Assembly (NCBI GenBank): GCA_050953885.1
Contig: JBMNNJ010000001.1
Span: 271,437-335,436 of the forward strand
DNA length: 64,000 bases
Source of the DNA: Patescibacteria group bacterium
Lineage (GTDB): Bacteria > Patescibacteriota > Microgenomatia > 0-14-0-10-38-17
Direction: 5' to 3'
In this document: positions 6,907 through 63,304 of the stretch, one piece after another
Position numbering within the stretch: the stretch's first letter is position 1
Layout of the letters: the number at the start of each line of letters is the position of its first letter
Translations under genes and position numbers: made by a program
Notes under the pieces: model-generated
The model's database searches: none
What the model was told of the DNA's origin: nothing
The model's input: the letters and a program-made list of their open reading frames with translations, nothing else

Positions 6907-6954
6907 CTGCTAAAAGACGCGAATTAACGCAAATGAGAAACGAATGGACACGAA

Positions 6955-7135
6955 AAATAAACGCAAATATTAAATCGCAATCCGCCAGCTGGCGGATCAA
7001 AACGCAAATGGCAAAACTACATGGCAAATGTTAAAACTTTTTAAAACTTAAAGTTGTTTTTTTTAGTTTTGAGTTTTAACATGTAGTTTTGAGTTTTGCG
7101 ATTTGAGATTTGCGATTATTTTTATTATATCGTGT
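6955..7135 (+). repeat. MITE-like intergenic repeat, copy 2
   Basis: See copy 1. It sits in the rsmI/DedA divergent intergenic region, next to ATCCGCCAGCTGGCGGAT at 6980-6997. Confidence 0.8.
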
Positions 7136-11509: not shown

Positions 11510-11744
11510 ATTCAAAAGTCAAAATTCAAAATTCAAAATTAGAAAACTAAATTGCTAAATTGTTAAAAACGTCATCCTGAACTTGATTCAGGATCGTCTT
11601 AAGAAACGGATTCTGACTTTCGTCAGAATGACGACCACGATCATCGTCATCCCTGAATTAAATTCAGGGCAGGCTCTAAACTTGATTCAGGATCAATTAA
11701 AAATACCCCTCTGGTAAAAGTTAGTATGGATTTTTTAGGATATT

Positions 11745-12780: not shown

Positions 12781-12935
12781 CGCGAATGGACACGAAAAAT
12801 AAACTCAAAACTCAAATGGCAAATGGCAAATCTACATGGCAAATGTTAAAACTTTTTAAAACTTAAAGTTGTTTTTTTAGTTTTGAGTTTTAACATGTAG
12901 TTTTGCGTTTTGAGATTTGAGATTTGAGTTTATCT
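12781..12935 (+). repeat. MITE-like intergenic repeat, copy 3
   Basis: See copy 1. Confidence 0.8.
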
Positions 12936-13034
12936 TTTGTTTTTGAATTTTGCCTTTTGAATTATTTTTGCGCCAGTCATTTGCTCATTCGTGTCCATTC
13001 GCGTATCCGTAGCAATATCGCAATTTAACAATAA

Positions 13035-20323: not shown

Positions 20324-20569
20324 AGGACGCGAATTAACACGAATTAAAAACGAATGGGCACGAATGAGCGAATAATTGGTGCAAAAATAATTCAAAATTC
20401 AAAAGTCAAAATTCAAAATTTCAAGTTAAAAGTTTTTTGCTCTACTTTTGAATTTTAAATTTTGAATTTTGATTTAGGCTTTAATCTTTGATATTTGCGT
20501 TTTGAGATTTGAGTTTTTTTTACCTATTGCGCATTACGAAAATTTCTTAATCTCTTAGTATCTTAACTT

Positions 20570-22459: not shown

Positions 22460-23755
22460 ATGCAACCAAAAATTTTTTCGCTGTCTTCCCATCCTCTAAA
22501 AAAAATCCCCTCAAAACCCGGGGTTTATCTTTTTTTAAACCAAGAGGGAAAACCTCTTTATGTCGGTAAGGCGGCTAATCTTAAAAATCGCCTTGGCGCT
22601 TATTTGGGGGAAAAAACGCTCTTGGACAAAAAAACCCGCCTGCTGGTTTTGGAAGCCAAAAAGCTTAAGATTATTATTCTCCCCTCCGAATTCGAAGCCT
22701 TGCTTTTGGAGGCTAATTTAATTAAACAATTTCAGCCCCCTTATAACACCAAGCTCAAAGACGACAAGCGCTATCTTTACATTAAAATCACCCGCGAAAA
22801 GTATCCGCAGGTGGGGGTGGCGCGCCGCCAAACCCCCCATGCCGAGCTTTTTGGCCCTTATCCTTCGGCCAAAACAGTCCGGTTTCTTTTGCGGGAAATC
22901 CGTCGCATTTTTCCCTATCGCTCCTGCCGAATTTTACCTAAAAAACCATGCCTTTATTACCAGATTAATCTTTGCCCCGCCCCGTGCGTTAATCAGGATA
23001 AAAAGTCAACCCTTGCTTATCGCCGACAAATTAGCCAAATTAAAAAACTGCTCGAAGGCAAAAGCGGGCGTTTAATTAAAGAATATGACCAAAAAATGCG
23101 CCGGGAAGCAAAAAAAGAAAATTTTGAAAAAGCCGCCCAATTTAAAGAAATTAAAGAAAAATTAATCTGGTTAACAGAGAAAAGAACGGCACCGGAAATA
23201 TGGCTGGAGGAAATTTTCCCCGAAGAAACCGCCTCCCAACGCCTCCAGGCGCTTTACGAAATTTTAAAAAATTATTATCCCAAGTTGAGCCCGCCCTTAA
23301 AACGAATTGAGGCCTATGACATTGCCAACCTCGCCGGCGGTGAAGCCACCGGCTCAATGGTGGTTTTCAAAAACGGTCAGCCCGACCCTGCCTCTTATCG
23401 TCAATTTAAAATCAAAACTAAAGATAAGCCCGATGACCCGGCAATGATGAAAGAGGTTATCAGCCGCCGACTTAATAATCCCCAATGGCCCCGCCCTGAT
23501 TTTATTTTGGTTGACGGCGGCAAGGGGCAGGTGAGCGCCGCTCTTAAAGCCTTAGAAGAAAAGAAACAAAATATCCCCGTGGCGGGTTTGGCCAAAAGAG
23601 AAGAGGAAATTGTTATTAAAGAAAAAGACCATTACCGGATTTTAAAAATCGACCCCGACTCGCCGGCCTTATTGCTTCTGCGCCAAACCCGCGACGAAGC
23701 GCATCGCTTCGCCCAACGCTACCATCATTGGCTGCGGACCAAAAAGCTGGTATAA
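22460..23755 (+). CDS. uvrC: Excinuclease ABC subunit C (short form lacking C-terminal HhH)
   Basis: GIY-YIG nuclease at the N-terminus (GVYLFLNQEGKPLYVGKAANLKNRL). A UVR motif is present. An RNase H-like endonuclease domain (ILVDGGKGQV) is present. The protein is 431 aa and ends without the HhH pair. Confidence 0.85.
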   Translation: MQPKIFSLSSHPLKKIPSKPGVYLFLNQEGKPLYVGKAANLKNRLGAYLGEKTLLDKKTRLLVLEAKKLKIIILPSEFEALLLEANLIKQFQPPYNTKLKDDKRYLYIKITREKYPQVGVARRQTPHAELFGPYPSAKTVRFLLREIRRIFPYRSCRILPKKPCLYYQINLCPAPCVNQDKKSTLAYRRQISQIKKLLEGKSGRLIKEYDQKMRREAKKENFEKAAQFKEIKEKLIWLTEKRTAPEIWLEEIFPEETASQRLQALYEILKNYYPKLSPPLKRIEAYDIANLAGGEATGSMVVFKNGQPDPASYRQFKIKTKDKPDDPAMMKEVISRRLNNPQWPRPDFILVDGGKGQVSAALKALEEKKQNIPVAGLAKREEEIVIKEKDHYRILKIDPDSPALLLLRQTRDEAHRFAQRYHHWLRTKKLV

Positions 23756-25379: not shown

Positions 25380-25591
25380 GATAAAACACGAATAGACGCG
25401 AATAAGAAACGAATAAACACGAATGAGCGAATGATTGGCAAGACAAGCTCGCGATAACGGTCACTATCATCCTGAACTTGATTCAGGATCAAAACAGATT
25501 CTGACTTTCGTCAGAATGACAGATTCCTTACCTATTACGTGTTACGCATTACGCATTAATATCTTAATATCTTAGTATCTTTTGAAAACAG

Positions 25592-25799: not shown

Positions 25800-25876
25800 G
25801 GATCCGTAGCTCAGTTGGCTAGAGCGCCCGGCTTACATCCGGAAGGTCACAGGTTCAAATCCTGTCGGATCCACCA
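25800..25876 (+). tRNA. tRNA-Val(TAC)
   Basis: Acceptor GGATCCG/CGGATCC. Anticodon loop CTTACAT. CCA is encoded. Confidence 0.8.
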
Positions 25877-25902
25877 GTCCATGATAAAATAAAATAAATT
25901 AA

Positions 25903-25975
25903 GCCAGAGTAGCCAAGGTGGTCACGGCGCGTGTCTGAAAAACATGAGATCTCGGTTCGACTCCGAGCTCTGGCA
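25903..25975 (+). tRNA. tRNA-Phe(GAA)
   Basis: Acceptor GCCAGAG/CTCTGGC. Anticodon loop CTGAAAA. T-arm CTCGG-TTCGACT-CCGAG. No encoded CCA. The D-arm is atypical. Confidence 0.65.
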
Positions 25976-26238
25976 CAGATTAAATTGTATGTTGTATTGA
26001 ATATAAAAAGCTGACATTGCCGTATTGTTTAAACTGACAAATCCGCCAGCTGGCGGAAAAAATTAAAACCTAAATCAAAGCGGGAATTTGTAGGGGTCGA
26101 CCCATGTGTCGACCCGATTAATGGTTTTAAATAGGCAAGCGCGGATTCTTTGAAGGGCGGACACATAGGTCCGCCCCTACAATTCGCGTCGATTCGTGTT
26201 TTAACAGTTTAGCAATGTCTCTTAATATCTTAGCCTAG

Positions 26239-26326
26239 GCCGCGGTGTTGGAATCGGCAGACAAGCAAGACTTAAAATCTTGTGCTCCAAAAGAGCGTGA
26301 GGGTTCGAACCCCTCCCGCGGCACCA
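26239..26326 (+). tRNA. tRNA-Leu(TAA)
   Basis: Acceptor GCCGCGG/CCGCGGC. Anticodon loop CTTAAAA. Long variable arm. CCA is encoded. Confidence 0.85.
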
Positions 26327-26336
26327 GAAGCCAATC

Positions 26337-26408
26337 GCGAGGGTAGTTCAGTGGTAGAACGTCTCGTTGCCAACGAGAAGGCCGCGGGTTCAAGTCCCGT
26401 CCCTCGCT
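26337..26408 (+). tRNA. tRNA-Gly(GCC)
   Basis: Acceptor GCGAGGG/CCCTCGC. Anticodon loop TTGCCAA. Discriminator U. Confidence 0.85.
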
Positions 26409-26425
26409 CATTTTTCCGCTTTTTT

Positions 26426-26496
26426 TGCCCGGTCGTCTAACGGTAGGACAACAGACTTTGGATCTGTCTATCCAGGTTCGAATCCTGGCTGGGCAA
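26426..26496 (+). tRNA. tRNA-Gln(TTG)
   Basis: U1-A72 acceptor TGCCCGG/CTGGGCA. Anticodon loop CTTTGGA. T-arm CCAGG-TTCGAAT-CCTGG. Confidence 0.8.
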
Positions 26497-26520
26497 CTAG
26501 CACGGGCACCCAGGATAACC

Positions 26521-26651
26521 GAGAGAAATACATCTTCTAAGTGTCCCAGGTTCACGCCTGGCATATTTTTACTCTTTGGTAATAAAATACGACTAATATA
26601 CTCCAGGTGTCAAGTTAAGACACTTTCCAGGTGTACACACAGGTGTACAAC
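26521..26651 (+). repeat. About-130-bp direct repeat, copy A (CAGGTG-rich; left boundary of islet, immediately 3' of tRNA-Gln)
   Basis: Aligns over about 130 bp with 29629-29763 and 30864-30982, all in the same orientation. Shared blocks include CCAGGTGTCCCAGGTTCACACCTGG and CCAGGTGTCAAGTTAAGACAC. Confidence 0.85.
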
Positions 26652-26765
26652 ATTTTCATACAATTGCAAAAATTGAAGCGGGGGGCAACGCCTAGCCCTA
26701 CAATTGAAACGGTTAAAAAAATCGCTGACGCATTAGGTATTAGTATTGATAATTTATTCAAATAA
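26619..26765 (+). pseudogene. 5'-truncated XRE-family HTH regulator remnant
   Basis: The reading frame ...LQKLKRGATPSPTIETVKKIADALGISIDNLFK* matches the C-terminal half of an XRE HTH domain (E.G.R.PSLETL.KIA.ALGVS.D.LF). There is no start codon. The frame runs back into repeat A and hits a TAA. No reading frame of the repeat encodes an N-terminal HTH half. Confidence 0.45.
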
Positions 26766-26771
26766 CTAAAT

Positions 26772-29549
26772 ATGAATTTACTTCAGACACTTTGTTCATA
26801 TTGGTATGAATGTATAAAAAATGAAGATGTCTTAGAAAAAGATATTCCTATTAACGTGCGCTCAAAAGCAATTTTATACCCTTTTGATGATGACCCTTTT
26901 GTATTCAAAAAGAAAGATGTCTCCGTTAAGATTGAAAATGAAAAATTAAATACCTTCGCAACTACAAAAACCGAAGGATTAGAGTTTTATTATGGGTATC
27001 CACTTCTTTATTATCGAGACGATAAGACTGATAGACAATTAGTCGCTCCTTTATTTATTATCAAGGTTAAATTTAATCGCGACGGTAGAGATTTGTTTCT
27101 GTCTAAAGACGAGCAATATCCGGTTTGCGGAATTCAAGCTCTAAGCAAATTAGGATTAAGAACAGAAGAAACAGCCAATATAAACCAATCCATAGAAAAA
27201 TTATTTGTTGGTAACCCTAAAATAGATGAACAGCAACTTTGCAATGAGGCGCTAAAAATTATCGAGAAAGAGGCAGGAATTTCAATTATCGAGGAAATAA
27301 ATCCACTAAAACTATCCAACTCAAAAAAACTTACGAGAGAAATGTCGGCGGGCTTGTATAACAAAAGTTTAATTTTTGCCGGAGAAACTACAGTTTTTAA
27401 TATTCACCTGATAAAAGATTTGTTAGAGCTTAAAAGCAGAACTGATCTGGAGAAAACATCTCTATCGTTCTTTTCTGCTCCTCGTTCTGCCGATGTTCAA
27501 AATGAAGTAATACCGATACTTCCTTTTCCCTCAAACGAATATCAAATAACGGCAATTCAAGATATTTTTAGGCATTCGTTAAGCGTAATAACTGGCCCCC
27601 CAGGAACGGGAAAAAGTCAATTTATATCAAACCTGATTGTCAATCTTTTTCTAGCCGGCAAAACGGTTTTGTTTGTCAGCCATACGGGAGAAGCCGTTGA
27701 TGTTGTGAACTCAAGGATAAGTGAACAATTTCGAAATCTGATGTTACGAACTGGGAAAAAAGAACTTCGTCAAGATTTGAAAGGTAGGTTTAATGAGATA
27801 ATCGCAGATTCTTCAAAAAGAAATAATAAAAATATCTCTGCAGATTATATTTATTCTCTTTGGAAAACAATTCTGGAATACAGAGACAGCTTACTGAAAA
27901 AAGATGAAGCCGAAAAAGATTTTCAACAGAAGTTTTTTTACCAAAAGGAATTAAAAAATGTTCTTCAAATTCAAGATTCTATTGTAAAAAAACTAAAAAT
28001 ATACTTTCAGCTTTTTATCCTTAATTTTAAATTACAAAGAATAAAATCAAGATTGTTAAAATTACCCAGCCGTGTAAATTTTGAATCTAAAATAAGAGAA
28101 TTAGAAAAAGAATATTATCTTTCCTGTCAAGATTTTGTTCGAAATGTTTACTTAGAAAAAATGCTTGGTAATGGCAGCAAGATTAGTCTGGTTAATGCTT
28201 TTCTTAATCAGGTCAATAGTCATCGATTCAACGATGAAGATATAAGTGAGTCATCATTTATTAACGCTTTGCAGGTTCTTAAAATTTGGTCATCTACCCT
28301 AAAATCACTTAGGGGTACTTTTCCACTTAAAGCTAATATTTTCGACTACGTTATTTTTGACGAGGCTTCTCAAATTGATTTGCCGTCTACGGCCCCTGCC
28401 TTATATAGGGCCAAAAAAGCGATTATTGTGGGCGACCCAATGCAATTAACCCATATTGCGGGCATTACAAAGGATGTCGATTATGGATTAGCAAAAATAC
28501 ACGGCCTAACGGAAATGGGAGATATTTATCCTTCAAAAACAAGATATTGCGATGTTTCTTTATATAAAGCGGCTGAAAATTATTTGCCCCATTCATCAAT
28601 ATTTTTAACCAATCACTACCGCCCCGAAGACCAAATTATTTCCCTTTGTAACCAAGTGTTTTATGGAAATCGCTTAAAAATATTAAGCACGCTGGACTAT
28701 GGTAAGTTTCCTTCCGGATTACCCTTAGGCGTACAGTGGGAAGATATAAGAGGGGAAGTATATAAGCACCCTTCGGGAAGTCGCATCAATCAACGGGAAG
28801 TAGATGAGGTTAACAGAATTTTTCAAAAAGTGATAAAGGAAATTTCCGGGACTGATTTGACTGTTGGCGTGGTTACGCCTTACTCAAAGCAAAGGCAAGC
28901 AATATATGAAAAAATATCATCTATAACACCGGTAGAGGTTTTGGAAAAACACGATGTGAAAATACTGACAGCTCATCAATTTCAAGGTTCTGAAAAAGAT
29001 ATTGTCATTTTTTCGTTAGTGTTGACCTCTAAGGGAAATGGAAACAGCGACACATGGTATAACATTTACCGGCAAATATTAAATGTCGCCCTTTCTCGGG
29101 CAAGGTATCTTTTATACATCATTGGTGATAAGGATTTTTGTGAAAACAGGAAGGGTATTTTAGGCAAGATAAAAAGTGTTTATGAAAAAATCAAAGACGA
29201 AGAGAAATTAGAAGAGTATGACCTCCACGCAAAATTTGATACCCCAACCGAGAAGATATTTTTTGAACAATTACAGAAAGTCAAGTTAGATAAGTTTGGT
29301 TATAAATTGATACCAAAGTTAGTGGTAAAAAGATACACGCTAGATTTTGCAATCGTTGGTAAGAAAAAAATTAATGTTGAGATAGACGGCATACAACACG
29401 AAATAATCAAAGGTATGCCAGTTTTAGAAGATGTTGAACGAGATGAATTTCTGAAAAATGAAAATTGGGAAATTTTACGATTTCCTAATTACATGGTATT
29501 ATCTGAAATGCCAAAAGTCATTGATGAATTGTTGACTAAATTAAAATAG
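26772..29549 (+). CDS. SF1 (Upf1/DNA2-like) helicase fused to C-terminal DUF559 (Vsr-fold PD-(D/E)xK-like) endonuclease domain; N-terminal about 250 aa of unknown function
   Basis: Walker A ITGPPGTGKSQF. Motif II VIFDEASQ. VGDPMQL (AAA_12-type). NHYRP. QFQGSEKDIVIF. LNVALSRARYLLYIIG. The C-terminal 110 aa, YTLDFAIVGKKKINVEIDGIQHE...DVERDEFLKNENWEILRF, match the DUF559 consensus. Confidence 0.85.
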   Translation: MNLLQTLCSYWYECIKNEDVLEKDIPINVRSKAILYPFDDDPFVFKKKDVSVKIENEKLNTFATTKTEGLEFYYGYPLLYYRDDKTDRQLVAPLFIIKVKFNRDGRDLFLSKDEQYPVCGIQALSKLGLRTEETANINQSIEKLFVGNPKIDEQQLCNEALKIIEKEAGISIIEEINPLKLSNSKKLTREMSAGLYNKSLIFAGETTVFNIHLIKDLLELKSRTDLEKTSLSFFSAPRSADVQNEVIPILPFPSNEYQITAIQDIFRHSLSVITGPPGTGKSQFISNLIVNLFLAGKTVLFVSHTGEAVDVVNSRISEQFRNLMLRTGKKELRQDLKGRFNEIIADSSKRNNKNISADYIYSLWKTILEYRDSLLKKDEAEKDFQQKFFYQKELKNVLQIQDSIVKKLKIYFQLFILNFKLQRIKSRLLKLPSRVNFESKIRELEKEYYLSCQDFVRNVYLEKMLGNGSKISLVNAFLNQVNSHRFNDEDISESSFINALQVLKIWSSTLKSLRGTFPLKANIFDYVIFDEASQIDLPSTAPALYRAKKAIIVGDPMQLTHIAGITKDVDYGLAKIHGLTEMGDIYPSKTRYCDVSLYKAAENYLPHSSIFLTNHYRPEDQIISLCNQVFYGNRLKILSTLDYGKFPSGLPLGVQWEDIRGEVYKHPSGSRINQREVDEVNRIFQKVIKEISGTDLTVGVVTPYSKQRQAIYEKISSITPVEVLEKHDVKILTAHQFQGSEKDIVIFSLVLTSKGNGNSDTWYNIYRQILNVALSRARYLLYIIGDKDFCENRKGILGKIKSVYEKIKDEEKLEEYDLHAKFDTPTEKIFFEQLQKVKLDKFGYKLIPKLVVKRYTLDFAIVGKKKINVEIDGIQHEIIKGMPVLEDVERDEFLKNENWEILRFPNYMVLSEMPKVIDELLTKLK

Positions 29550-29628
29550 GTGGCGTAGCAATCAATCGGGATTTTGTTTAAAAAAGGTTCGCACTTCGTT
29601 CAGTAATTGTGGCTGATTCAGATTTTGT

Positions 29629-29763
29629 GAAGAAATACACCTTCTAGGTGTCCCGGGTTCACACCTGGCATATTTTTACTCTTTGGGCAATAAAACACGA
29701 CTAAAACATACTCCAGGTGTCAAGTTAAGACACTTGCCAGGTGTACAATACCAGGTGTACAAC
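29629..29763 (+). repeat. About-130-bp direct repeat, copy B (internal to islet)
   Basis: See copy A. A TGTATAAT -10-like element follows at about 29781-29788. Confidence 0.85.
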
Positions 29764-29860
29764 ACAATATAATTCAGGTGTATAATATTGTTGTACCCAA
29801 AACTTTGAGTAATTCGAATATATCGAATTATTAAACTGCATTATAAAAGGAGGTGAAAAA

Positions 29861-30196
29861 ATGTTTAAAAATCTTTTAGATTATTCATATAAAAGAAGTT
29901 TTAAAGAAGCAATTGGTTTTTATATTTCTTACCTCGTTTTGACTTTAATATTGGCAGTATTATTAACGAGTGTTTTAGGGCCAACTAGCGGTCAAGAAAA
30001 TTTTGATTTTGGTTATAGAGTTTGGAATCTTGTTGCTATTATAGTAACAGTTACCCTTTCTTTCCTTATTTTAAAAAAGAAAGAATTTTTAGGAAATTTT
30101 TTCTATTTTATATTGGCTCTTTTATCAGGAGTCTTATCATATTTTGGTGGCGGCTTGTTGGGCTTGATCCCCGTAGCTTTTCTTTCTACAAGATAA
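29861..30196 (+). CDS. Small integral membrane protein (3 predicted TM helices), hypothetical
   Basis: A canonical strong Shine-Dalgarno AAAGGAGGTG sits 7 nt before the ATG, which is rare in this window. The 111-aa protein is hydrophobic. Confidence 0.5.
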   Translation: MFKNLLDYSYKRSFKEAIGFYISYLVLTLILAVLLTSVLGPTSGQENFDFGYRVWNLVAIIVTVTLSFLILKKKEFLGNFFYFILALLSGVLSYFGGGLLGLIPVAFLSTR

Positions 30197-30233
30197 GCAA
30201 AACTTAAACAGCCTTGGGGAGAAAAATAAAAAA

Positions 30234-30671
30234 TTAATAAGATAAGGACTTGCCGTTGCGGGTGAGAAATTCAAAAAGCATTTTTGGGGTGAAAATTTTC
30301 TTAGGCTTGATAAAAGCGGCCACTTTTTGAGTCAAAAAATGTTTTTTGTCTAAAGTAATTAAAAACTCGCATGGAGCCATCTTTGCCTCAGTAAGAATGA
30401 CAGCATCCTTTTTAACAATTACTTTCCTAGCTTTCTGAATCAGTTTTTGATCTAGCTTTTGGTCGATAATTTCAAGTTTACTCACCAAAAGAAAAAATCT
30501 TTTTAAGTGATAGTTCTCTAATTTTTTACGGATATTCCTTTCGACTTCTGTTAAAACTAATTTTGAAGCAACCAACTTAATTTGTCTCAAGGTAAAAAGT
30601 TTTGATGAGCCACCCGTAGGAGAATTAACGGCCATAAACAAAACGCTTGAATCTAAAAATGCCCTTTTCAT
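30234..30671 (-). CDS. PIN-domain ribonuclease (VapC-like toxin)
   Basis: N-terminal AFLDSSVL (the first PIN acidic residue). Later ILTEAKMAPCEFLITLDKKHF carries the conserved D. The 145-aa protein lies 2 nt downstream of the antitoxin-like ORF. Confidence 0.7.
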   Translation of the reverse strand: MKRAFLDSSVLFMAVNSPTGGSSKLFTLRQIKLVASKLVLTEVERNIRKKLENYHLKRFFLLVSKLEIIDQKLDQKLIQKARKVIVKKDAVILTEAKMAPCEFLITLDKKHFLTQKVAAFIKPKKIFTPKMLFEFLTRNGKSLSY

Positions 30672-30673
30672 CC

Positions 30674-30874
30674 TTAAAGTTTATCTTCTTTTTCCCGCTC
30701 ATTAATTTCCTTCTCAGTAAATTCTCGAGTGAAAGGCAAAAGTTGAGGATCAATAAAAGCCTTTTGATAAATCCTGGCGACTTCCTTTTCGAGTTTAGCC
30801 AAATACTCAACATCCACCAAAACAGCTTCAGGTTTGCCGTTGCGAGTAAAGAAATTGACGGTTGAGAAATACAC
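30674..30874 (-). CDS. Phd/YefM-like antitoxin, apparently N-terminally truncated (GTG start at edge of repeat C)
   Basis: TRNGKPEAVLVDVEYLAKLEKE matches the RGKPVAVLVS.EEYE core of Phd/YefM. Only about 10 residues precede it instead of about 30. The upstream frame runs into repeat C and stops. Confidence 0.5.
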   Translation of the reverse strand: MYFSTVNFFTRNGKPEAVLVDVEYLAKLEKEVARIYQKAFIDPQLLPFTREFTEKEINEREKEDKL

Positions 30875-31016: not shown

Positions 31017-31769
31017 CTAAATCTCTATCCCTATCGGACAATGATCCGAACCTTTAATTTGGTTTAAAATAAAGGCGTTTTTCAACTTGATCGCCAACTT
31101 TTGGGTAACAAAAACATAATCAATCCGCCAGCCCAAATTACGCGCCCGGGCGTTGGCATAATAGGGCCACCAAGTATAAGCATCCTTTTTTTTCGGATAA
31201 AATTTTCTAAAACTATCAATAAAACCGTTGCCGACTAGCTGGTTAATTCTGGCCCGCTCTTCGGGGGTAAACATAATGTTATTTTTATTTTCTTTTGGCC
31301 GGGCTAAATCAATTTCCTCATGGGCAATATTAAAATCACCCGTCAGGATAACTTTCTTTTCTTTAAGCTTTTGAAGATAATTTAAAAGATAGTCATAGAC
31401 CGCCAATTTATAGGCTAATTTTTCTTTTTGGCGGCCGCCATGAGGAAGATAAAGGTTAATCAGGCTAAACTGGGGATAGTCCAGTTTTAAAAATCTCCCC
31501 TCGTCGTCAAATTCTTTAAACCCTACCTTTTCCTCCCATGATAAAGGCTTTTGCCGGGAATAAACGGCCGTGCCGGCATATCCTTTTTTCTTCGCCGAGT
31601 TAAAATAAGAATAATAGCCTTTGAGGGAAACCAGCTCGGGGTCCAGTTGCTCTTTTGAGGCTTTTATTTCCTGAAGGCAGAGAATATCGACCCCCATTTG
31701 GTCAATTTTTAGGGCGCCTTTTTGGTAAACCGAGCGCAAGCCGTTAACATTCCAGGAAATGATTTTCAT
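31017..31769 (-). CDS. xth: Exodeoxyribonuclease III (AP endonuclease, EEP family)
   Basis: MKIISWNVNGLRS, the LQEIK motif, and the C-terminal SDHCPI motif. Confidence 0.9.
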   Translation of the reverse strand: MKIISWNVNGLRSVYQKGALKIDQMGVDILCLQEIKASKEQLDPELVSLKGYYSYFNSAKKKGYAGTAVYSRQKPLSWEEKVGFKEFDDEGRFLKLDYPQFSLINLYLPHGGRQKEKLAYKLAVYDYLLNYLQKLKEKKVILTGDFNIAHEEIDLARPKENKNNIMFTPEERARINQLVGNGFIDSFRKFYPKKKDAYTWWPYYANARARNLGWRIDYVFVTQKLAIKLKNAFILNQIKGSDHCPIGIEI

Positions 31770-32035: not shown

Positions 32036-32377
32036 ATGACTTTTAAAAATAAAGTTTACAAACTCGTTAAGAAAATTCCCCGCGGCAAAGTGGCCACTTA
32101 TGGCCAAATCGCCAAGCTGGCCGGCAAACCGGGGGCGGCTCGGGCGGTGGGGGTTTTGTTGAAAAATAACCCCTACATTGGCGTTCCCTGCCATCGGGTG
32201 GTTGGCGCCAAGAGAGAATTAGTTGGCTATTCAAGAGGAGAGGGAATTAAGAGCAAAAAACAAATTCTTAAAAACGAGGGGGTCTTTTTTAAAGGGGGTA
32301 GGGTAGACTTAGAAAAATCGGGCTGGAAACCAAAAAAAATGGAGGAGCGAACTTTCCGCCCGAGGAAAAACAGGTAG
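32036..32377 (+). CDS. MGMT-family protein (Ogt C-terminal DNA-binding/alkyl-acceptor domain only, active-site PCHRV retained)
   Basis: ATYGQIAKLAGKPGAARAVG...PCHRVV is the O6-alkylguanine alkyltransferase HTH and active-site cysteine. Confidence 0.75.
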   Translation: MTFKNKVYKLVKKIPRGKVATYGQIAKLAGKPGAARAVGVLLKNNPYIGVPCHRVVGAKRELVGYSRGEGIKSKKQILKNEGVFFKGGRVDLEKSGWKPKKMEERTFRPRKNR

Positions 32378-46581: not shown

Positions 46582-46650
46582 GAGACGAGAAAAATGCAAA
46601 TAACTTGTAATGCGTAATAAGCAAACGCAAAAAACAAAGCCTAAATAAAA

Positions 46651-46800
46651 ATTCAAAGACAATAAATAAACTCAAATCTCAAATGTCAAAACTCAAAACT
46701 ACAACTCAAAACTCAAATCTAAAAAACAACTTTAAGTTTTAAAAAGTTTTAACATTTGCCATGTAGTTTTGCCATTTGACATTTGCGTTTTGAGTTTATT
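46651..46800 (-). repeat. MITE-like intergenic repeat, copy 4 (reverse orientation)
   Basis: See copy 1. It begins with the same ATTCAAAGACAATAAATAAACTCAA terminus as copy 1. Confidence 0.8.
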
Positions 46801-46848
46801 TTTCGTGTCTATTCGTTTTTAATTCGTGTCAATTCGTGTTTTCAAAAT

Positions 46849-63094: not shown

Positions 63095-63255
63095 CGAAAA
63101 ATAAACTCAAATCTCAAAACGCAAATGTCAAATCTACATGGCAAATGTTAAAACTTTTTAAAGCTTAAAGTTGTTTTTAGTTTTTAGTTTTGAGTTGTAG
63201 TTTTGAGTTTTGCGATTTAACATTTGAGTTTATTTATTGTTTTTAAACTTTGATT
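63095..63255 (+). repeat. MITE-like intergenic repeat, copy 5
   Basis: See copy 1. It ends GAGTTTATTTATTGT, the reverse complement of the copy 1 and copy 4 start. Confidence 0.8.
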
Positions 63256-63304
63256 TAGGTTTTGTCCCGCTATGACGGGACATTTTGCCTTTTGACTTTT
63301 TATC

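Follow-up and report, generated by a model that had tools for sequence, protein, structure and literature searches.

A candidate single-protein defense gene in a Patescibacteria genome: a compact, mobile Upf1-like helicase with a C-terminal DUF559 nuclease

Nhi combines an N-terminal HsdR-like nuclease with a DUF2075 helicase of superfamily 1 (SF1), and Hhe (HheA) was reportedly presented by Gao et al. in 2020 as a single-protein anti-phage system. Hhe is active in anti-phage defense, and it loses this activity when its Vsr domain carries the E1731A mutation (bioRxiv 10.1101/2022.06.16.496414). Nhi, Hna, HmaA, and DdmD are solitary proteins in which a helicase serves as sensor/motor and a nuclease as effector (PMC11232893). 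A helicase and a nuclease are likewise joined in one protein in the gene analyzed here, which lies in a 64,000-nucleotide stretch of a Patescibacteria group bacterium genome (contig JBMNNJ010000001.1; "the window" below, with positions counted from its first letter). From the sequence comparisons below, its product is most likely a compact, uncharacterized variant of the Hhe-like helicase-Vsr-nuclease proteins. Not known before are the protein family with the fold of its N-terminal domain, the range of its hosts, and the cassette vehicle that carries it in a genome of the candidate phyla radiation (CPR). The gene and the domains that it encodes are the following.

26772..29549, + strand: helicase-nuclease gene, an intact open reading frame (ORF) of 925 aa with an ATG start (ORF list and translation)
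26772..27521, + strand: N-terminal domain, residues 1-250, mixed alpha/beta, family-specific
27531..28448, + strand: helicase domain 1A (AAA_11), residues 254-559, with Walker A GPPGTGKS, DEASQ, and GDPMQL (Pfam, E value 1e-21)
27840..28220, + strand: four-helix coiled-coil insertion in domain 1A, residues 357-483 (model secondary structure and alignment gaps)
28551..29132, + strand: helicase domain 2A (AAA_12), residues 594-787, with HYR, QGSEKD, and LSRAR (Pfam, E value 7e-30)
29241..29543, + strand: DUF559/Vsr-fold (MTES_1575-like) endonuclease domain, residues 824-924 (Pfam)

The protein starts with its family-specific N-terminal domain, continues with an SF1B motor of the Upf1/DNA2 type, and ends with a nuclease of the Vsr fold; the core motifs of motor and nuclease are all intact. 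This three-part layout within a single gene, together with intact SF1 motifs, had been proposed in a first-pass annotation made from the letters alone, and both the 925-aa ORF and Pfam agree with it; all six motifs are found in the translation, as GPPGTGKS (residues 275-282), DEASQ (530-534), GDPMQL (554-559), HYR (615-617), QGSEKD (738-743), and LSRAR (774-778). Residues 824-924 match DUF559 (PF04480) with an E value of 5e-12 and 46 bits against a gathering cutoff of 20.6, and the same stretch matches MTES_1575 at 8e-7, under the cutoff of that model. The features that place a domain in DUF559 are present, namely the gathering score and the D...E.DG..H...RD...W.(L)RF core on a Vsr fold. Among 61 full-length homologs, which form our profile and conservation set, the helicase motifs are invariant, as are residues D858, E870, D872, G873, H876, D887, R890, D891, and W899 of the DUF559 domain, and R903 is kept in at least 90%. 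The catalytic residues of the nuclease, on whose conservation the first-pass annotation had made its reading depend, are thus conserved throughout this set.

Compared with solved structures, the 61-homolog profile matches Upf1, Sen1/SETX, DNA2, IGHMBP2, Aquarius, and ZNFX1, and residues 826-924 match the DUF559 protein 3hrl. The AlphaFold2 model of the whole protein has a mean predicted local distance difference test (pLDDT) score of 75. The coiled-coil insertion (residues 357-483) is the most variable region of the alignment. In homologs of ~1012-1123 aa (P0068, P0081, P0110, and P0118; alignment A1, columns 407-624), the coiled coil is ~90 to 200 residues longer, with ~90 extra residues in the ~1012-aa subgroup; these residues lie between motifs I and II, and the remainder of these proteins is ~60% identical to the window protein.

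That the first 250 or so residues match nothing recognizable, as the first-pass annotation had remarked, was borne out: searches of Pfam, NCBIfam, and PADLOC with the domain alone, with the whole protein, and with 35 family members returned no match to residues 1-250. A phmmer search with these residues against 1.84 billion cluster representatives returned 57 clusters only; every full-length or long member examined among them runs into an AAA_11 helicase, and the rest are short fragments. Modeled separately, the domain reaches a pLDDT of 82 and a predicted template modeling score of 0.73, and its predicted mixed alpha/beta fold comprises a long N-terminal helix, a three-stranded meander (residues 70-112), and helices at 121-165 and 208-222. 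The domain has no known fold relative, and none is detectable outside the helicase-nuclease family. Its invariant residues are Y10, W11, C14, E18, D41, Y74-G75-x-P77, P93, C119-G120-x-Q122, E132, G194-x-YNKS, N210, and D216, among which there is no recognizable catalytic signature. We considered whether it might be a divergent DUF4011, a possibility rejected at the available sensitivity, since hhalign against a 1937-aa DUF3320/ProA-like protein left the domain unaligned. A second PD-(D/E)xK nuclease was rejected as well, given that the invariant residues of the beta-strands are aromatic, Gly, or Pro rather than acidic; no nuclease match was found for the domain. It may serve as a sensor, a substrate selector, or a gate.

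The closest parallel in domain organization is with Hhe. Both run, in one polypeptide, from an N-terminal accessory region through an AAA_11/AAA_12 Upf1-like SF1 helicase to a C-terminal nuclease of the Vsr/DUF559 type, and two of the features expected of an Hhe protein, AAA_11 plus AAA_12 with intact ATPase motifs and a C-terminal nuclease with conserved acidic residues, are found in the window protein. In addition, the helicase-2A and nuclease half is homologous to that of Hhe: positions ~1260-1770 of the Hhe model align with this half in L101, a distant member of the family described below. However, Hhe measures ~1600-1900 aa as opposed to 925, and the PADLOC Hhe model (PDLC02194; E value 2.8e-15) finds its best stretch in residues 254-317, the Walker A region. 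The N-terminal 250 aa are unrelated by sequence and by hhalign, which aligned only helicase 2A and the nuclease of the 1937-aa DUF3320/ProA-like protein, and part of the window protein's family has an XRE partner gene. By Pfam, the window protein has no DUF4011 at an E value of ≤1 and no DUF3320; in the scan of 35 members, DUF4011 falls outside the 25 most-matched of 57 families, a ranking that leaves room for matches in a few members.

The best models covering both helicase 2A and DUF559 are ProA (NCBIfam NF058533, "anti-phage protein ProA"; residues 518-904, E value 6e-43) and the PADLOC candidate PDC-S37 (residues 522-866, E value 3e-37), although these profiles span 1550-1900 positions and are matched in their C-terminal third only. 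A literature search returned no description of ProA, which is compared here by profile alone. The C-terminal 406 aa of the window protein also find 71 plasmid records at a coverage of at least 80%, annotated as DUF4011, DUF3320, or AAA, including a 1937-aa protein with AAA_11, AAA_12, MTES_1575, and DUF3320. Judging from these matches, helicase 2A followed by DUF559/MTES_1575 is a populous architecture whose domain order is already known. It is not unusual, then, for the nuclease to sit at the C terminus, a point that the first-pass annotation had singled out; the same order is found in Hhe and in many plasmid-borne DUF4011/DUF3320 proteins. Nor is Nhi, the analogue named there, the closest one: no PADLOC Nhi model matched at an E value of ≤1, and the nuclease is C-terminal instead of N-terminal and HsdR-like.

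In the helicase core, the top PADLOC matches are the Mokosh proteins MkoC (7e-57) and MkoA (3.5e-51), which belong to the same Upf1-like clade. Mokosh, however, is defined by a nuclease of the PLD family, present as MkoB or fused in MkoC, whereas the match to the window protein is limited to the helicase and Pfam detects no PLDc domain in the window protein or its neighbors. The eukaryotic relatives are more distant, with a sequence identity of about 20% to DNA2 and Upf1. In DNA2, the DNA threads through the nuclease, a PD-(D/E)xK domain of the Fe-S kind at the N terminus, and the nuclease of the window protein is C-terminal and of the Vsr type.

The gene travels between distant lineages as a unit of ~2.8-3.2 kb, either by itself or accompanied by a small gene of the XRE repressor type. 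A word-indexed search yielded 894 relatives among its scored candidates, and the best 120 of the 894 are, with few exceptions, full-length and have identities of 57-100%. A single scan over species-representative genomes gave full-length relatives from Paceibacterota (97% identity), from a "Gammaproteobacteria" contig of a metagenome-assembled genome (MAG; 92%), and from the Bacteroidota isolate Thermoflavifilum thermophilum DSM 14807 (89%), as well as others labeled Portnoy-, Nomura-, and Roizmanbacteria, Nitrospinota, Nitrospirae, Planctomycetia, Syntrophaceae, Aminicenantales, Actinomycetota, Atribacterota, Spirochaetota, and an archaeal Methanofastidiosum MAG; identities of the cross-phylum and archaeal relatives range from 57 to 97%. 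Taxon labels taken from 3-kb MAG contigs are unreliable because of binning, a doubt that does not touch the long contigs and the isolate.

At the DNA level, the Paceibacterota locus L009 keeps synteny with the window from the tRNA cluster through the gene and is 90-97% identical to it there, which places the window in a Paceibacterota (CPR) genome. Between the window and Thermoflavifilum (L001), an identity of 86% over 2,905 nt is confined to positions 26653-29555, with the left edge inside an XRE remnant upstream of the gene and the right edge 6 nt past the stop codon; in other locus pairs, the edges of homology fall at the ATG or the XRE gene on the left and within ~15 nt of the stop codon on the right. 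The rate of synonymous substitution (dS) between the CPR and Thermoflavifilum copies is 0.62. The G+C content of the gene is 31-38% whatever the host, in flanks of 29-50% (33% in flanks of 50% in Thermoflavifilum; 34% against 43% for the rest of the window), and the insertion site is different in every genome examined. Given the spread across phyla, the DNA homology that ends at the gene edges, and the host-foreign G+C content, we conclude that this is not a vertically inherited housekeeping gene, the outcome on which the first-pass annotation had staked its proposal; the variable cassette array described below agrees with this. Many metagenome contigs carrying the gene are only 3-4 kb long. 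We considered them as possible small circular replicons or transposons, but rejected this since they have neither terminal overlaps nor inverted repeats. Matches on Escherichia coli and Ralstonia plasmids (H15 and H1) were set aside as generic AAA/helicase relatives or unannotated.

All three domains are under strong purifying selection. Against six homologs, the ratio of nonsynonymous to synonymous substitution rates (dN/dS) is 0.05-0.13 overall and similar in the three domains. A reading of the gene as a pseudogene or relic was rejected, because dN/dS is about 0.1 and the motifs are intact.

Just upstream of the gene lies a truncated XRE gene that the first-pass annotation did not mention and whose intact counterpart accompanies the helicase-nuclease in a minority of loci.

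26653..26766, + strand: XRE/HTH_3 remnant, the C-terminal half without a start codon (positions 35-67 of the family XRE hidden Markov model [HMM], E value 5e-12)

With this HMM, which was built from intact XRE partner proteins of family loci, we found an XRE copy upstream of the helicase-nuclease in 20 of 47 loci and none in the other 27. The XRE-bearing loci comprise all members of at least 77% identity, except L006, and the Gribaldobacteria lineage; no other lineage has one. Complete or near-complete XRE frames end 2-22 nt upstream of the gene in L007, L010, L012, L071, and L074-79, among them a 70-aa gene ending 2 nt before the helicase-nuclease in Gribaldobacteria, and the L071 pair overlaps. 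Thermoflavifilum has an HTH_3/XRE gene of 64 aa (L001 9784-9997) that stops 22 nt short of the helicase-nuclease and carries a frameshift close to its 3' end. In the window, the XRE gene is cut exactly at the end of repeat R1 (see below), and the same remnant is found in L009. A type II toxin-antitoxin pair of XRE and helicase was rejected, since 27 of the 47 loci have no XRE, the window and L009 have a truncated copy, and L001 has a frameshifted one, yet the large gene remains intact. Because the helicase-nuclease is intact and constrained without it, XRE appears to be a clade-specific regulator, not an obligatory antitoxin. Among the Gribaldobacteria loci L074-L079, the sequence immediately ahead of the XRE-helicase pair varies; about 2.3 kb before XRE, some strains have a divergent large serine recombinase of 516-529 aa and others a 115-aa ORF after FtsX.

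The surroundings of the gene in the window comprise three direct repeats of ~125 nt, a second cassette, and three repair-gene neighbors.

26523..26652, + strand: repeat R1, left border of the helicase cassette, starting 26 nt after tRNA-Gln
29630..29764, + strand: repeat R2, right border of the helicase cassette and left border of cassette 2; site of the joint with R3 in L102-L106
30864..30990, + strand: repeat R3, right border of cassette 2, before xth
29749..30864, no strand assigned: cassette 2, with a 111-aa membrane ORF, a PIN-like toxin, and a small upstream ORF; a neighbor outside the helicase-nuclease unit
22460-23755, + strand: uvrC, repair-gene neighbor
31017-31769, strand opposite to the helicase-nuclease: xth, repair-gene neighbor
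32036-32377: gene for an Ogt-type DNA-binding protein, repair-gene neighbor

This islet is a strain-variable, repeat-mediated cassette array, in which the helicase-nuclease is accessory cargo. The first-pass annotation had noted a repeat-bounded islet, and its borders are the three repeats. Each begins with a terminator-like hairpin and a T-run, followed by several CCAGGTGT sites; in R1, the hairpin is CCAGGTTCACGCCTGG, followed by the T-run and then the CCAGGTGT repeats. R2 and R3 are 74-90% identical to R1 over its first 78 nt, and the repeats have no Rfam match at an E value of ≤0.1. Cassette 1, located downstream of a cluster of seven tRNA genes, consists of the XRE remnant and the helicase-nuclease. 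As for the toxin-antitoxin pair proposed next to it, support in cassette 2 is weak: the PIN domain is just over the Pfam cutoff (E value 3e-5) and the putative antitoxin PhdYeFM is under it (0.003).

The variability of the array rests on two observations. Scanning metagenomes with the R repeat returned ten contigs (L082-L091), and in these related strains R copies adjoin the same tRNA genes while the cargo differs, being a radical-SAM/SPASM protein with a GNAT protein, an IS1595 transposase with a DEDDh exonuclease and HTH fragments, or a NUDIX-nucleotidyltransferase. Moreover, five contigs of the window's own strain from independent metagenome samples (L102-L106), 99.4-99.6% identical to the window, join position 29748 to 30865, so that cassette 2 is absent and one hybrid R2/R3 repeat is left. 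No integrase was found among the R-array loci read. Compared with window positions 25851-26652, the R repeats of L082 and L090 are 90-95% identical and the adjacent tRNA genes just 81-86%; either the tRNA genes are less well conserved than the repeat, or the repeat is exchanged between lineages.

The neighborhoods of relatives suggest a link between the family and defense genes. L073 lies among genes for CTD9, MC5, AAA_23, HEPN_AbiU2, PLDc, and BsobI proteins and transposases, L095 has an OLD-family ATPase-TOPRIM nuclease protein two genes upstream, and L072 neighbors HARE-HTH and HSDR_N proteins. The distant 1032-aa member L101, on Rhizobium leguminosarum plasmid p2 (NZ_CP071401.1, 323122-326220), is annotated only as "AAA domain-containing protein" and adjoins a Shedu nuclease, a BPTD_3080 restriction endonuclease, an SMC-like ATPase, and a DUF2357 protein. 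Its hhalign alignment with the window protein (E value 3e-75) runs from window residue ~65 to the C terminus and takes in the N-terminal-domain motifs GYP, GLYNKS, and DLxEL.

Because Hhe, ProA, and PDC-S37 offer analogues and because L073, L095, L072, and L101 lie in a defense-island context, we consider it on balance probable that the protein is a self-contained, mobile helicase-nuclease acting, in the way proposed for Hhe, as a single-protein defense against phages or other invading DNA. The motor would load onto single-stranded nucleic acid of the invader, for instance replication or recombination intermediates, and translocate 5'→3' on ATP; the N-terminal domain might sense or select the substrate or gate the enzyme, and the DUF559 domain would then nick or cut DNA. 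In the XRE-bearing clade, the HTH protein would control transcription, and in the window, where this regulator has been removed at R1, expression would rely on sequences of R1 or of the XRE remnant. The defense role offered in the first-pass annotation is favored by the conserved catalytic residues, by the purifying selection in every domain, by the non-housekeeping distribution, by the variable location in a cassette array, and by some defense-type neighbors, but other relatives (L001, L002, and L093) lie in housekeeping contexts. These contexts belong to a set of observations that weigh against defense. Roughly half of those examined are plain housekeeping surroundings without defense genes, such as heme biosynthesis and peptidase M13 at L001, Sdh and Der at L002-5, and GatCAB and RluA at L093; some other contexts point neither way. 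The family models are scored far below their cutoffs, with 76.8 bits against 2000 for Hhe (NCBIfam NF042953) and 146.6 bits against 1500 for ProA (profile positions 1298-1683 of 1903), and the window protein is accordingly a member of neither family. No close member was found on sequenced plasmids, phages, or IMG/VR contigs, where the best matches are at helicase level or 30% identity. The N-terminal domain, with a dN/dS of 0.05-0.19, shows no diversifying selection and falls below what an arms race would lead one to expect. Finally, repair genes lie near the gene in several genomes. A further-reaching proposal, which we regard as possible but doubtful, is that of a new single-protein immune system with a new infection-sensing N-terminal fold and no host-specific partners, able to work in CPR bacteria, Bacteroidota, and methanogen-related archaea alike and delivered here by a previously undescribed cassette array of ~125-nt repeats that exchanges accessory genes beside a tRNA cluster, with no integrase seen; partner independence would then be the reason why the gene can move as a bare ~3-kb unit.

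The repair genes just mentioned could instead point to an accessory enzyme of DNA repair or recombination, acquired by repair-poor small genomes and processing mismatches, flaps, or damaged ends in a DNA2- or Vsr-like fashion. Such genes are uvrC, xth, and the Ogt-type gene in the window, xseA in Gribaldobacteria, whose start is overlapped by the stop codon of the helicase-nuclease and which is followed by xseB, and an adenine glycosylase gene 1.2 kb downstream in L095. Yet in the window the proximity of xth stems from the cassette insertion site and not from an operon, xth being on the opposite strand, and the array carries unrelated other cargo; together with the patchy spread (one or few lineages per phylum), near-identical DNA across phyla, foreign G+C content, and the anti-phage role of the relatives that have a named one (Hhe and ProA), this makes a repair function improbable. 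The gene could also be selfish or belong to a mobile element and promote its own spread or upkeep with no benefit to the host, be it as an addiction pair of XRE antitoxin and helicase-nuclease toxin or as a nuclease-driven, homing-like element: the transferred unit is tiny, the edges of homology are tight on the ORF, the many 3-4 kb contigs imply that assemblies break at the gene borders, I-Bth0305I, a homing endonuclease, has the same nuclease fold, and a small upstream HTH gene resembles the layout of type II antitoxins. This, too, seems unlikely to us, because the helicase-nuclease remains intact and selected although XRE is missing from most of the family and truncated or frameshifted elsewhere, and because the short contigs lack the ends of a replicon or transposon and no transposase or integrase co-travels, the adjoining serine recombinase being confined to some Gribaldobacteria strains. 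Homing in particular was rejected, as the insertion sites all differ, the opposite of what it predicts. Least probable, in our estimation, is an RNA-directed, Upf1- or Mokosh-like helicase acting on foreign or aberrant RNA, in which DUF559 would do something other than cleave DNA. MkoC and MkoA are indeed the strongest PADLOC matches, and RNA helicases (Upf1, SETX/Sen1, IGHMBP2, and ZNFX1) are among the closest helicases of solved structure; but the Mokosh matches cover the helicase core only and the PLD nuclease is absent, the effector has a DNA-endonuclease fold whose full catalytic set is conserved, and kinship of the motor leaves its substrate unsettled, since Upf1-like motors work on both DNA and RNA.

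If the gene does serve defense, it would be among the smallest Hhe-type helicase-nucleases and a rare concrete defense candidate in CPR bacteria. With 925 aa, a cultured host in Thermoflavifilum thermophilum, and three cleanly separable domains, it is tractable for studying the class. Near-identical copies in unrelated phyla and an archaeon suggest that no host-specific cofactor is needed, which would make the helicase-nuclease easy to transplant. The repeat-delimited array, in turn, gives a direct view of accessory-gene exchange in a reduced CPR genome.

A few further features of the window were noted. The first four tRNA genes lie between the arms of a 22-nt inverted repeat that is 95% complementary (25382-25403 and 26182-26203), there is a G+C-rich hairpin of 28 nt at 26088-26182, and the segment 26057-26182, unaligned to L009, L083, L087, and L103, looks like an indel. 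Secondary blastn matches of L083, L087, L086, L089, and L091 point to two further families of dispersed intergenic repeats of ~100-200 nt, at 46628-46845, 63136-63264, 2845-2976, 12834-12952, 6914-7121, and 20460-20564, and also at 11570-11693 and 25467-25521; the unit at 11570-11693 is tandemly reiterated in L086, L089, and L091. UvrC proteins are usually much longer (~600 aa) than the homolog encoded in the window, which has 431 aa and in which the GIY-YIG and RNase H-like endonuclease domains are present.

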